From Escherichia coli (GTDB lineage Bacteria > Pseudomonadota > Gammaproteobacteria > Enterobacterales > Enterobacteriaceae): a DNA stretch of 64,000 bases. Where the stretch lies: assembly GCF_050920415.1 (NCBI RefSeq), contig NZ_CP169309.1. The stretch is one strand, 5' to 3'. The notes beneath the pieces are model-generated. The model saw only the letters and a list, made by a program, of their open reading frames with translations, did no database searches and had not been told where the DNA came from. Positions 21,913 through 57,632 of the stretch are shown here, piece by piece. How positions within the stretch are numbered: position 1 is the stretch's first letter; each line of letters opens with the position of its first letter. Both the position numbers and the translations under genes were made by a program.

Positions 21913-21940
21913 AAGCCACGGATATATCCGTGGCTTTTTA
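21913..21940. terminator. bidirectional intrinsic terminator (osmB on +, pyrF-yciH on -)
   Basis: agccacggatatatccgtggct hairpin followed by ttttt on +; it lies 3 nt from the yciH stop on -. Confidence 0.7.
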
Positions 21941-45980: not shown

Positions 45981-47174
45981 ATGACAACATTACTTAACCC
46001 GTATTTTGGTGAGTTTGGCGGCATGTACGTGCCACAAATCCTGATGCCTGCTCTGCGCCAGCTGGAAGAAGCTTTTGTCAGCGCGCAAAAAGATCCTGAA
46101 TTTCAGGCCCAGTTCAACGACCTGCTGAAAAACTATGCCGGGCGCCCAACCGCGCTGACCAAATGTCAGAACATTACAGCCGGGACGAACACCACACTGT
46201 ATCTGAAGCGTGAAGATTTACTGCACGGCGGCGCGCATAAAACTAACCAGGTTCTGGGCCAGGCTTTGCTGGCGAAGCGGATGGGTAAAACCGAAATCAT
46301 TGCCGAAACCGGTGCAGGTCAGCATGGCGTGGCTTCTGCGCTTGCAAGCGCCCTGCTCGGCCTGAAATGCCGTATTTATATGGGTGCCAAAGACGTTGAA
46401 CGCCAGTCGCCTAACGTTTTTCGTATGCGTTTGATGGGTGCGGAAGTGATCCCGGTGCATAGCGGTTCCGCGACGCTGAAAGATGCCTGTAATGAGGCGC
46501 TACGCGACTGGTCCGGCAGTTATGAAACCGCGCACTATATGCTGGGCACTGCAGCTGGCCCGCATCCTTACCCGACCATTGTGCGTGAGTTTCAGCGGAT
46601 GATTGGCGAAGAAACGAAAGCGCAGATTCTGGAAAGAGAAGGTCGTCTGCCGGATGCCGTTATTGCTTGTGTTGGCGGCGGTTCGAATGCCATCGGCATG
46701 TTTGCTGATTTCATCAACGAAACCGACGTCGGGCTGATCGGCGTGGAGCCTGGTGGTCACGGTATCGAAACTGGCGAGCACGGCGCACCGTTAAAACATG
46801 GTCGCGTGGGCATCTATTTCGGTATGAAAGCGCCAATGATGCAAACCGAAGACGGGCAGATTGAAGAATCTTACTCGATTTCTGCCGGACTGGATTTCCC
46901 GTCAGTCGGCCCGCAACACGCTTATCTCAACAGCATTGGACGCGCTGATTATGTGTCAATCACCGATGATGAAGCTCTGGAGGCCTTCAAAACGCTGTGC
47001 CTGCACGAAGGGATTATCCCGGCGCTGGAATCCTCACATGCGCTGGCCCATGCGCTGAAAATGATGCGCGAAAACCCGGAAAAAGAGCAGCTACTGGTGG
47101 TTAACCTTTCCGGTCGCGGCGATAAAGACATCTTCACCGTTCACGATATTTTGAAAGCACGAGGGGAAATCTGA
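45981..47174 (+). CDS. trpB: tryptophan synthase beta chain
   Basis: 397-aa [28 protein letters not shown]... Confidence 0.96.
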
Positions 47175-47980
47175 TGGAACGCTACGAATCTCTGTTTGCC
47201 CAACTGAAGGAGCGCAAAGAAGGCGCATTCGTTCCTTTCGTCACCCTCGGTGATCCGGGCATTGAGCAGTCGCTGAAAATTATCGATACGTTAATTGAAG
47301 CCGGTGCTGACGCGCTGGAGTTAGGTATCCCCTTCTCCGACCCACTGGCAGATGGCCCGACGATTCAAAACGCCACACTGCGTGCCTTTGCGGCAGGTGT
47401 GACCCCGGCGCACTGCTTTGAGATGCTGGCACTCATTCGCCAGAAGTACCCGACCATTCCGATCGGCCTTTTGATGTATGCCAACCTGGTGTTTAACAAA
47501 GGCATTGATGAGTTTTATGCCGAGTGCGAGAAAGTCGGCGTCGATTCGGTGCTGGTTGCCGATGTGCCCGTGGAAGAGTCTGCGCCCTTCCGCCAGGCCG
47601 CGTTGCGCCATAACGTCGCACCTATCTTCATCTGCCCGCCGAATGCTGATGATGATTTACTGCGCCAGATTGCCTCTTACGGTCGTGGTTACACCTATTT
47701 ATTGTCGCGTGCGGGTGTGACCGGAGCTGAAAACCGTGCCGCGTTACCTCTCAATCATCTGGTTGCGAAGCTGAAAGAGTACAACGCTGCGCCTCCATTG
47801 CAAGGATTTGGTATTTCCGCCCCGGATCAGGTAAAAGCAGCGATTGATGCAGGAGCGGCGGGCGCGATTTCTGGTTCGGCAATTGTTAAAATCATCGAGC
47901 AACATATTAATGAGCCAGAGAAAATGCTGGCGGTACTGAAAGCTTTTGTACAACCGATGAAAGCAGCGACGCGCAGTTAA
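47174..47980 (+). CDS. trpA: tryptophan synthase alpha chain
   Basis: 268 aa; start overlaps the trpB stop (tgATGg). Confidence 0.96.
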
Positions 47981-47987
47981 TCCCACA

Positions 47988-48014
47988 GCCGCCAGTTCCG
48001 CTGGCGGCATTTTA
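47988..48014 (+). terminator. trp operon terminator (trp t)
   Basis: gccgccag-ttccg-ctggcggc hairpin followed by atttt. Confidence 0.8.
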
Positions 48015-48360
48015 ACTATCTTTAATGAAGCAGGAAAAATCCTAAATTCATTTATTATTTATCTTTTTACCGTTTCGCTTACCCCTGACGTACGTTAACT
48101 TACGTCATTTTTCCGCCCAAAAGTAATATAATCAAACAAATTAATCCCGCAACAAAACACTACTAAAATCAATAATTTTCTCTAACCCACTTATTTCTTG
48201 GGTATTTATGAATATATCGAAACTCTTTTTCAAAATATATTTTTCACATTCCTTCTCACTTTGCTCAATTTGACTAATTCTCATTACCGACTAATTTTAA
48301 TGAGTGTCGACACACAACACTCATATTAATGAAACAATGCAACGCAACGGGAGAAATAAC

Positions 48361-48540
48361 ATGGCCGAACATCGTGGTGGTTCAGGAAATTTCGCCGAAG
48401 ATCGTGAGAAGGCATCCGACGCAGGCCGTAAAGGCGGTCAACACAGCGGCGGTAATTTTAAAAATGATCCGCAACGCGCATCCGAAGCGGGTAAAAAAGG
48501 CGGTCAGCACAGCGGTGGAAATAAATCAGGAAAATCCTGA
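48361..48540 (+). CDS. yciG: small glycine-rich stress protein YciG
   Basis: ORF trimmed to MAEHRGGSGNFAEDREKASDAGRKGGQHSGGNF..., 59 aa with KGG repeats. Confidence 0.85.
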   Translation: MAEHRGGSGNFAEDREKASDAGRKGGQHSGGNFKNDPQRASEAGKKGGQHSGGNKSGKS

Positions 48541-48632
48541 TCCGCCGTTAATTATTAATATCAGCTGACGTTGATAAAGATAATTGCCTCTGCGGGCCGT
48601 ATGGCTCGCAGTGATTTCACTGGAGTAAAAAT

Positions 48633-49133
48633 ATGAATATGAAGTCCATTGAAGATGTATTTATTCACCTGCTTTCAGACACCTACAGTGCAGAAAAACA
48701 ATTAACACGGGCACTGGCAAAACTCGCCAGAGCAACATCAAACGAAAAATTAAGTCAGGCTTTTCATGCGCACCTCGAGGAAACTCATGGACAGATTGAA
48801 CGTATTGATCAAGTTGTGGAATCTGAACCGAATCTGAAAATTAAGCGCATGAAATGTGTGGCAATGGAAGGTCTCATTGAAGAAGCTAATGAGGTCATCG
48901 AAAGCACCGAGAAAAACGAAGTGCGTGATGCCGCACTGATTGCCGCGGCACAGAAAGTCGAGCACTATGAGATCGCCAGTTACGGGACCTTAGCGACGCT
49001 GGCTGAACAATTAGGTTATCGTAAAGCAGCGAAGCTTCTGAAAGAAACCCTGGAAGAAGAAAAGGCCACCGACATCAAATTGACTGATCTGGCCCTTAAT
49101 AACGTAAATAAGAAAGCAGAAAATAAAGCCTGA
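48633..49133 (+). CDS. yciF: DUF892 ferritin-like stress protein YciF
   Basis: 166-aa ORF. Confidence 0.88.
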   Translation: MNMKSIEDVFIHLLSDTYSAEKQLTRALAKLARATSNEKLSQAFHAHLEETHGQIERIDQVVESEPNLKIKRMKCVAMEGLIEEANEVIESTEKNEVRDAALIAAAQKVEHYEIASYGTLATLAEQLGYRKAAKLLKETLEEEKATDIKLTDLALNNVNKKAENKA

Positions 49134-49178
49134 AATATGAACTTTAACTTTTAGTCATTTTATAAAGAGGACATTTTC

Positions 49179-49685
49179 ATGAATCGTATTGAACATTATC
49201 ATGACTGGTTACGTGACGCCCACGCAATGGAAAAGCAAGCAGAATCTATGCTTGAATCCATGGCCAGCCGCATAGATAATTATCCTGAGCTACGCGCTCG
49301 TATTGAACAACATGTTAGTGAAACCAAAAACCAGATTGTACAACTGGAAACTATTCTTGATCGTAATGACATTTCACGCTCAGTCATTAAAGATTCTATG
49401 AGTAAAATGGCTGCACTTGGGCAGTCAATCGGTGGTATATTCCCTTCTGATGAAATAGTCAAAGGCTCTATTAGCGGATATGTCTTCGAGCAATTTGAAA
49501 TCGCCTGTTACACCTCACTATTAGCAGCAGCAAAAAATGCCGGTGATACAGCTTCAATTCCAACCATCGAAGCGATTTTAAATGAGGAAAAAGAAATGGC
49601 CGAGTGGCTGATTCAGCATATTCCGCAAACAACTGAGAAATTTTTAATACGCTCTGAAACTGATGGCGTAGAAGCGAAGAAATAA
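49179..49685 (+). CDS. yciE: DUF892 ferritin-like stress protein YciE
   Basis: 168-aa ORF, paralogous to yciF. Confidence 0.88.
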   Translation: MNRIEHYHDWLRDAHAMEKQAESMLESMASRIDNYPELRARIEQHVSETKNQIVQLETILDRNDISRSVIKDSMSKMAALGQSIGGIFPSDEIVKGSISGYVFEQFEIACYTSLLAAAKNAGDTASIPTIEAILNEEKEMAEWLIQHIPQTTEKFLIRSETDGVEAKK

Positions 49686-52555: not shown

Positions 52556-52586
52556 GTCAAAAGCCTCCGGTCGGAGGCTTTTGACT
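52556..52586. terminator. bidirectional terminator between convergent yciA and tonB
   Basis: tcaaaagcctccg-gtc-ggaggcttttga palindromic hairpin. Confidence 0.8.
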
Positions 52587-57602: not shown

Positions 57603-57632
57603 AAGGGCTGACAACTGTCAGCCCTTATTTTG
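57603..57632. terminator. bidirectional terminator between convergent yciU and oppF
   Basis: gggctgaca-ac-tgtcagccc hairpin followed by ttattttgttt. Confidence 0.7.

Follow-up and report, generated by a model that had tools for sequence, protein, structure and literature searches.

The spacer between trpA and yciG in Escherichia coli carries two inverted repeats, and the question that they raise is whether either of them is a regulator binding site or a structure of the 5' untranslated region that would serve the yciGFE genes. This question was addressed in a window of 64,000 nucleotides, which is the whole stretch of DNA that was analysed, and by comparison with complete genomes of E. coli and with the corresponding loci of other Enterobacteriaceae. 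The joint reading that, on balance, we regard as probable is that the upstream repeat, element (i), is a lineage-specific quasi-palindrome without a conserved role, and that the downstream repeat, element (ii), is an inverted repeat placed on the transcription start point which gives no stable leader hairpin. The two elements are unrelated to each other. Both inverted repeats are real, and the sequence comparisons support neither a conserved regulator site nor a leader structure for either of them. In the accessible literature, no description of either inverted repeat as an element was found. What is already established for this region are the terminators trp t and trp t', and the yciG promoter under the control of sigma-S, H-NS, and YncC(McbR).

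The genes of the window follow the order trpB-trpA, yciG-yciF-yciE, and ompW, with ompW on the opposite strand (Table 1). The flanking genes trpA and yciG-yciF-yciE agree with the annotation of an identical E. coli genome and bear out the proposal of an earlier note, made from the letters of this DNA, that the locus is the upstream region of yciG. The trpA-yciG spacer has about 380 bp, is AT-rich (GC 0.34), and is 100% identical in E. coli strain MFDS1022581. The locus belongs to a deep haplotype, with an identity to K-12 of 93.6% in trpA, 90.3% in the spacer, and 96.0% in yciF, and a spacer at least 95% identical to that of the window is found in just 14 of the 5,426 complete E. coli genomes. 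The synteny trpA-yciGFE(katN)-ompW is retained in Salmonella, C. rodentium, and C. sedlakii, and a comparison across the genome collection showed that in other genera yciGFE lies mostly apart from trpA. Salmonella and Citrobacter were used as outgroups; a scan of the genome collection for YciF, together with protein searches, gave E. coli as the sole species of Escherichia. Published work places the yciG region under upstream input from H-NS, YncC/McbR, and RcsB, and describes yciGFE as RpoS-dependent, with yciG counted in the rpoS regulon. The RcsB consensus TN(G/A)GAN4TC(T/C)NA and the Salmonella yciG box that is aligned in Table 1 have been published (PMC7913699).

Table 1. Features of the trpA-yciG region and its flanking genes, in positions of the window.
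Feature	Position	Strand	Remarks
trpB	45981-47174		
trpA	47174-47980		upstream flank of the spacer
trp t, intrinsic terminator of the trp operon	47988-48008	+	stem GCCGCCAG / CTGGCGGC, then ATTTT
RcsB-like box CAGGAAAAATCCTA	48031-48044	.	aligned homologue of the Salmonella box TAAGAAAACTCCTA; context only
Element (i), 22-bp quasi-palindrome TGACGTACGTT / AACTTACGTCA	48086-48107	.	right arm alone conserved outside its own haplotype
T5 run	48108-48112	+	directly 3' of palindrome (i); gives a terminator-like look
C-rich, G-poor rut-like stretch	48108-48199	+	C 23, G 3; expected site of the Rho-dependent trp t'
-35 hexamer TTGACT, yciG promoter	48270-48275	+	same hexamer and 16-bp spacer in 20/20 sequences
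-13C and -10 hexamer TAATTT, then TAA discriminator	48291-48297	+	-13C at 48291, -10 at 48292-48297; sigma-S-type
Element (ii), inverted repeat ATGAGTGT-N9-ACACTCAT	48300-48324	.	about -6/-4 to +19/+21 of the yciG start
yciG transcription start	48304-48306	+	G48306 mapped in K-12; G48304 homologous to the mapped Salmonella start
Core 10-bp perfect palindrome GTGTCGACAC	48304-48313	.	+1 to +10; common to E. coli and Salmonella
Shine-Dalgarno GGGAG of yciG	48349-48353	+	unpaired in every predicted fold
yciG CDS	48361-48540	+	59 aa, KGG-repeat stress protein; Q50H versus K-12
yciF	48633-49133		downstream of yciG
yciE	49179-49685		downstream of yciF

Element (i) reads TGACGTACGTTAACTTACGTCA, and its two arms are complementary at 10 of 11 positions and meet without a spacer. 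The 22-bp near-palindrome that the earlier note had reported at 48097-48118 is present as a sequence, with its true position offset by 11 nt, at 48086-48107. Palindromes of 22 bp of this kind occur four times in the window, compared with 0.70 +/- 0.78 in first-order Markov random sequences, and the probability of at least one of them in a 381-bp spacer of the same composition is 0.009. No second copy was found in the window and the element is single-copy in E. coli genomes, which rules out a repeated or mobile element of the REP type. It is located 105 nt past the stop codon of trpA and 77 nt past the trp t hairpin, on the trp sense strand, and directly precedes the C-rich stretch. Given that some 210 bp separate its centre from the transcription start of yciG downstream, element (i) is not in the yciG promoter or 5' region, to which it had been assigned, and lies instead in the zone between trp t and trp t'.

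Tandem terminators, the intrinsic trp t and the Rho-dependent trp t', were reportedly described at the end of the E. coli trp operon by Wu, Christie and Platt in 1981. We take trp t', which is placed about 250 nt beyond trp t, to correspond to the stretch at 48108-48199, and the composition of this stretch resembles that of a Rho-utilisation site. A Rut peak at trp t' has been published (PMC9499579). The fold predicted for trp t has an energy of -18.1 kcal/mol (z = -6.4), and this terminator is unchanged in all the E. coli alleles compared. In the RNA of the window allele, element (i) is predicted to give a 7-bp hairpin of -7.6 kcal/mol (z = -3.7), with three G-C pairs and a loop of 8 nt, which is followed by U5, and the RNA of the K-12 allele does not fold at this place (-1.6 kcal/mol, z = +1.2). 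Element (i) together with its T5 run is flagged as terminator-like by the terminator scan, and shuffled sequences give approximately 0.9 such sites per 800 nt.

The complementarity of the arms forms a series among the sampled E. coli alleles, from 6/11 in the K-12 type through 7/11 in a T type and 9/11 in a rare haplotype to 10/11 in the window. The K-12 22-mer at this place is GGTCGAACGTCAACTTACGTCA, with an identical right arm and a left arm that differs at 4 of the 11 positions. This left arm, GGTCGAACGTC, with G at position 1, is found in K-12 and in most E. coli, where the left half is a direct-repeat copy, ACGTCAAC. The left arm of the T type is TGTCGAACGTC, and the rare haplotype, which reads TGACGTACGTC, is linked to the substitution Q50H in YciG and occurs in at least two backgrounds. 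In the form found in the window, the C at the centre is replaced by T. An exact 55-mer with the GTCAAC centre of the 9/11 form was found in 16 of the 5,426 complete genomes, and the same search placed 510 genomes in the band of one to two mismatches and 3,416 in the K-12 band. The GTTAAC form of the window, taken over 94 bp, is present in one complete E. coli genome. Overall, palindromic arms are carried by about 17 of the 5,426 complete E. coli genomes, or approximately 0.3%. When metagenome contigs were scanned with the four palindromic variants, one contig of the 9/11 type was obtained, and the perfect form of the palindrome was not found among the contigs scanned.

In Salmonella and Citrobacter the palindrome is absent. 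Salmonella has a single ACGTCAA followed by TTTCCCCCGCC, which corresponds to the right arm with a T/C-rich tail, and no left arm; at the place of the left arm, the E. coli sequence is about 32 nt longer than that of Salmonella. Citrobacter carries TATGTATATTTATGTCAAC and AACGTAAGTTTATGTCAGC, which are direct-repeat-like sequences of the form AYGTnA-N4-AYGTCA, and no palindrome. The candidate site therefore fails in the very comparison by which the earlier note had proposed to judge it: given that K-12 and most E. coli, as well as Salmonella and Citrobacter, have not conserved element (i), it is refuted as a conserved regulatory site.

Palindrome (i) is most likely a mutational by-product, and its origin can be inferred as follows. 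The old part of the element would be the right arm, with ACGTCA, the T run, and CCGCC, and a few substitutions in the rare haplotype would have made the left half complementary to it. The source of these substitutions may have been a hairpin-templated quasi-palindrome correction, or drift. Quasi-palindrome correction is an intramolecular template switching, known from the model of Ripley and from the reporters of the Lovett laboratory. Every allele-specific change (T to A at arm position 3, A to T at position 6, and C to T at position 11) provides a Watson-Crick partner for the conserved right arm. The rare haplotype is defined by two of these changes, which are separated by 3 nt and are compatible with one templated patch (ACGTA). 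Such a pattern is typical of quasi-palindrome correction. Element (i) resembles the quasi-palindrome hotspots of the Ripley model and of the thyA and lacZ reporters of Lovett in that mismatches have been turned into the exact complement of the other arm by clustered substitutions. It differs from them in that it is known as standing allele variation alone, and in that a C/T mismatch is left at arm position 8. The only effect predicted for element (i) would be the weak 7-bp hairpin with U5 in the RNA that reads through trp t, which might act as a marginal extra terminator or exonuclease barrier, and the element as such is probably without function. The allele series could nonetheless illustrate how a quasi-palindrome is perfected and how a terminator-like hairpin arises de novo.

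A possible alternative to this origin is that palindrome (i) is old and has been decaying in most lineages. The Citrobacter outgroups carry the K-12 base at arm position 3 and are split at position 6, and the T at position 11 of the window is derived within its own haplotype. The comparison suggests, weakly, that the more perfect state is the derived one. For an old palindrome it counts that the Citrobacter alignment, while favouring the K-12 state at one arm position, is ambiguous at another.

All the changes in element (i) that are specific to the window or to its haplotype raise the complementarity, which could be the result of selection for the hairpin. Palindrome (i) would in that case be an RNA element for which selection has acted in the trp operon of this lineage, namely a second intrinsic terminator or a barrier to 3' exonucleases before trp t'. 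Such a role would account for a 7-bp stem followed by U5 and flagged by the terminator scan, for a folding energy with a z of -3.7 where the K-12 allele is unfolded, for a location on the sense strand of trp that follows trp t by 77 nt and abuts the C-rich stretch, and for the fact that every allele-specific change adds pairing. Nonetheless, we consider it unlikely, given that the stem is weak, with its three G-C pairs, 8-nt loop, and five U set against the -18.1 kcal/mol of trp t, that it is present in approximately 0.3% of complete E. coli genomes and missing in other species, and that shuffling produces such sites at the frequency given above. When compared with the tandem terminators themselves, element (i) is like them in lying between both on the trp sense strand, with a hairpin and then a U run as in trp t. 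It is unlike them in being far weaker (-7.6 versus -18.1 kcal/mol), absent from K-12, where both terminators were defined, and without known termination activity.

That a dimeric transcription factor uses palindrome (i) as its operator and acts from far upstream on yciGFE or on trp read-through is highly improbable: the dyad symmetry is near-perfect and unlikely to arise by chance, and the intergenic region has known upstream input from H-NS, YncC/McbR, and RcsB, but the element is not conserved in K-12, most E. coli, Salmonella, or Citrobacter, its centre is at about -210 from the start, there is no second copy in the window, and it does not fit the GTTAAC-centred operator of TrpR, whose CTAG elements are absent. 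The consensus of the TrpR operator is GTACTAGTTAACTAGTAC, centred on GTTAAC and with CTAG elements. In a comparison by eye with this consensus, GTAC abuts GTTAAC in element (i) without the TA spacer and neither CTAG is present, and a single genome has the GTTAAC centre. The motifs of MetJ, PurR, CRP, FNR, NarL, and IHF, likewise compared by eye, gave no convincing match. In Salmonella, yciG is activated by PhoB (PMC10715179). A PhoB box was rejected because the box predicted in Salmonella, TAGAGATAATATATTCTATATT, is elsewhere, centred at -154.5, and because the ACGTCA repeat has a period of 10 bp and not of 11.

The arrangement TTGACT-16-C-TAnnnT-TAA, which fits a sigma-S promoter, is common to all 20 yciG upstream regions compared, taken from E. 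coli, Salmonella, three Citrobacter lineages, Klebsiella, Enterobacter, Lelliottia, Leclercia, Pseudocitrobacter, Trabulsiella, Phytobacter, and Kosakonia, and it reads TTGACT-16-C-TAATTT-TAATGA in the window. Beraud et al. in 2010 reportedly described pyciG as sigma-S-dependent, silenced by H-NS, and activated by YncC/McbR, with cis-acting differences upstream of the promoter. Element (ii) overlaps the start of this promoter, whose -35, 16-bp spacer, -13C, -10, and TAA fit sigma-S and are conserved in Enterobacteriaceae; what sets it apart from the known pyciG is that the inverted repeat is not described as a regulatory site in the accessible literature.

The start of yciG in K-12 is listed at 1314114, with 2 reads in one dataset and a 5'UTR of 55 nt (Kim et al. 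2012, PMC3415461 supplement). The K-12 upstream string ...AATGAGTG (...TTTTAATGAGTG) places it at G48306, which is the sole start that this dataset lists between trpA and yciG. The mapped start in Salmonella is the G in ataggGtgtcgacac, directly before TGTCGACAC (PMC10715179 supplement), and it aligns to G48304. The start in E. coli is thus given by 2 reads in one dataset and by homology to Salmonella, and the geometry of the promoter and its start site are now located on this sequence. A perfect TATAAT at 48127-48132 was rejected as a promoter, since it has no -35 and no extended -10, the promoter scan is negative, and no start is listed there.

The arms of element (ii), at 48300-48307 and 48317-48324, pair over 8 bp without a mismatch and enclose a loop of 9 nt. 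The hairpin that had been drawn at 48299-48326 exists as an inverted repeat, in a range that takes in unpaired flanks. Its distance to the yciG ATG, given as about 35 nt, holds (the 3' arm ends 36 nt before the ATG at 48361-48363), and so does its place beside the yciG promoter, as it straddles the start of a promoter of the sigma-S type. Among random spacers of this size, 11% would contain a perfect 8-bp stem with a loop of 3-12 nt and, therefore, element (ii) needs conservation in order to count beyond chance. Element (ii) is invariant in E. coli. The whole block from the -35 to the ATG is nearly invariant in this species, with 48200-48265 highly variable, which makes the invariance uninformative with respect to the repeat. 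It is probably due to the core promoter and the first transcribed nucleotides being constrained, and not to a constraint on a hairpin.

Both candidate starts fall inside the 5' arm, so that 2-4 nt of this arm are transcribed, and element (ii) would give no stable leader hairpin because only these last nucleotides of the arm enter the RNA. In the RNA that begins at G48304, the predicted stem of element (ii) has 4 bp, an energy of -0.3 kcal/mol, and a probability of approximately 0.2, and it competes with a 4-bp tetraloop stem that has a probability of approximately 0.5-0.6. The full hairpin, with -7.5 to -8.9 kcal/mol and z = -3.45, is obtained only if transcription starts at or before 48300. 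By these folding predictions, element (ii) does not form a stable structure in the 5' UTR of the transcript as it is known. The suggestion of the earlier note that it could be one is not upheld, with the start at G48306 or G48304 inside the 5' arm, a stem of 2-4 bp, and a 3' arm that is not conserved in Salmonella.

A different role for element (ii), or for its core GTGTCGACAC, would be that of a DNA operator over the start, where a candidate dimeric regulator would block or modulate initiation by sigma-S and add to the poor expression of yciGFE in E. coli. The complementarity continues upstream beyond the start by 4-6 bp (ATGA/TCAT), in a stretch that cannot pair as RNA, and E. coli and Salmonella have the same core at +1 to +10, with the rest of the leader diverged; a protein operator would account for both. 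Inverted repeats at +1 are also found in Citrobacter. Against it, no known motif or protein is attached to the site, conservation within E. coli is uninformative because nothing in the block from the -35 to the ATG varies there, and an 8-bp stem is expected in 11% of such spacers. The extended complementarity may also be a coincidence because ATGA is the ancestral discriminator, with TAATGA present in Kosakonia cowanii as well, and the ancestral 3' arm has TCGT, which is similar to TCAT. As an account of element (ii), we give a DNA-level regulator site at the start point a low probability, and it found no support in the tests made here. A bolder version, in which the core, extended in E. coli to the full ATGAGTGT-N9-ACACTCAT, is a repressor operator that gates the sigma-S promoter of yciGFE, and in which element (i) is separately perhaps a nascent terminator produced by hairpin-templated mutation, appears to us quite unlikely. 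If it were true, a repressor at GTGTCGACAC would help to explain the poor expression of yciGFE in E. coli.

It is very unlikely that a longer leader, initiated upstream or produced by trp read-through, contains element (ii) as a true RNA hairpin that acts on the stability or translation of the yciG mRNA. The fully transcribed repeat has the favourable energy given above, with every pairing probability at 0.84 or higher, other genera have a conserved leader hairpin, and the perfect TATAAT at 48127-48132 could be seen as an upstream promoter element. Nonetheless, G48306 is the sole start listed for K-12 between trpA and yciG, read-through should end at trp t and trp t', the promoter scan finds none upstream, and the hairpin is not conserved in Salmonella. 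With element (ii) read as a start-point inverted repeat and element (i) as a quasi-palindrome of one lineage, two candidate regulator sites can be struck off, namely a rare allele from the zone in which trp transcription ends and a repeat on the start of a known promoter, a result of little wider weight.

The start-point repeat of E. coli can be set beside the yciG leaders of other Enterobacteriaceae. Where yciG is not linked to trpA, the leader is about 10 nt longer, with 62-72 nt versus 55-59 nt, and it has a stronger hairpin, with a total fold energy of -7 to -12.8 kcal/mol for the first 45 nt and a stem that begins at about +9 to +14 counted from the predicted start. In Salmonella, the core is kept at +1 to +10 and the E. 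coli 3' arm of element (ii) is absent. When E. coli and Kosakonia are aligned jointly, CGACAC of E. coli falls on the 5' arm of the hairpin in Kosakonia, the 3' arm of E. coli, ACACTCAT and then ATTAATGAAACAA, falls on that of Kosakonia, AGTGTCGT and then TTAACTGAAACAA, and the gaps are placed after the discriminator and in the loop. From this alignment we infer that element (ii) may be a re-wired remnant of a leader hairpin, brought onto the start by a shortening of the leader. In the loci linked to trpA (E. coli, Salmonella, C. rodentium, and C. sedlakii), the leader is about 10 nt shorter and its pairing would have been re-wired. The loss or re-wiring of the leader stem-loop in the trpA-linked loci of E. 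coli and Salmonella may bear on the known difference between species in the expression of yciGFE.

Stabilising stem-loops at the 5' end, of the ompA type, were reportedly described by Emory, Bouvet and Belasco in 1992. The yciG leaders are similar to them in having an inverted repeat at the very start of the leader of a stress gene, and in that related species have small stems from +1 or +2 (GUGAC/GUCAC in C. sedlakii). They differ in that E. coli forms only 2-4 bp from the mapped start, and in that, for 9 of the 13 sequences from the other genera, a distance of 7-13 nt lies between the predicted 5' end and the start of the hairpin, more than the classical rule of 5'-end protection allows.

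The side observation with the best evidence is that the yciG leader hairpin of other Enterobacteriaceae covaries and is not in Rfam. With Rfam 15, no relevant match was obtained in 47900-48700 at E <= 10, and the loci of Klebsiella, Kosakonia, Salmonella, and Citrobacter gave no match at the gathering thresholds. In 13 sequences from other Enterobacteriaceae, RNAalifold finds a 6-bp leader stem with compensatory changes in 5 of the 6 pairs. The stem is paired in 94.9% of the cells, compared with 13-51% in the slid controls, and its covariation score is reached by 0 of 500 shuffles.

In Klebsiella, Enterobacter, Citrobacter youngae, C. werkmanii, Leclercia, Lelliottia, Pseudocitrobacter, Trabulsiella, Phytobacter and Kosakonia, the leader of yciG contains a stem-loop. 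Compensatory changes have occurred at five of the six pairs of its stem, and in many of these leaders the stem-loop is flanked by a conserved GAACGACAAC on its 5' side and CTGACATAA on its 3' side. The search of Rfam returned no match for it.

Coordinates of the sequence features of the window and of related loci
Feature	Location	Remark
Leader stem-loop, 6 bp or longer	L004-L023 (loci of other Enterobacteriaceae), roughly 60-100 nt before the yciG ATG in each	alignment A5
RcsB-like box CAGGAAAAATCCTA	window 48031-48044	agrees with TN(G/A)GAN4TC(T/C)NA at 7 of its 8 specified positions
Perfect TATAAT	window 48127-48132	20 nt downstream of the 22-bp quasi-palindrome at 48086-48107
AATATATC and palindrome AAAATATATTTT	window 48211-48218 and 48232-48243	nearly invariant islands upstream of the yciG -35
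Salmonella perfect palindrome TTTACGCGGTAAA	L105 (Salmonella locus) 1101-1113	centre at about -63 relative to the yciG start
Further 22-bp palindromes, at least 10/11	window 21914-21935, 52560-52581, 57604-57625	
IS1 in the trpA-yciG spacer	window about 48040; L088 1614-2311 and L106 2576-3273 (other loci)	

Upstream of the yciG promoter, each of the two islands is altered in a single allele among those compared in E. coli, and the sequence that surrounds them (48200-48265) is hypervariable. ATATAT is part of the McbR ChIP-seq motif in K-12 (2026 paper). The perfect palindrome of Salmonella is missing in E. coli, and we infer that it may be the YncC (McbR) site that sets Salmonella apart from E. 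coli.

The RcsB-like box is the homologue of the RcsB motif of Salmonella yciG, TAAGAAAACTCCTA, and is also kept in Citrobacter. The yciG row in Table 2 of PMC7913699 contradicts itself, given that the motif start (1782070) and the transcription start (1782355) place the motif at about -285, whereas the printed distance is -55 to -41. Either this distance is a typographical error, or it was meant for another start, located further upstream and close to the ACGTCA element. The yciGFE genes are also among the candidate targets of an unknown osmotic activator with a motif ending in TCCTAAAAT (Reg-Seq preprint).

The TATAAT hexamer is unchanged across all E. coli alleles. It is accompanied by neither a -35 element nor a TG extension, and the K-12 dataset (PMC3415461 supplement) has no start site at this position.

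The divergence of the trp-yci locus (47174-49685) from K-12 is unusual for E. coli, with a DNA identity of 93.6% in trpA. The E. coli haplotypes of the trpA-yciG spacer are mosaic, which suggests that old alleles have been reshuffled by recombination. The spacer is also a target of IS1: one strain carries IS1A between the trp operon terminator trp t and yciG, while in another IS1B is present and yciGFE is deleted. A match to the spacer is absent from ~700 of the 5,426 complete E. coli genomes.

The window holds three further 22-bp palindromes, AGCCACGGATATATCCGTGGCT, AAAGCCTCCGGTCGGAGGCTTT and AGGGCTGACAACTGTCAGCCCT. On the trp sense strand, the stretch 48108-48199 contains 23 C and 3 G, a rut-like composition consistent with the Rho-dependent terminator trp t'.
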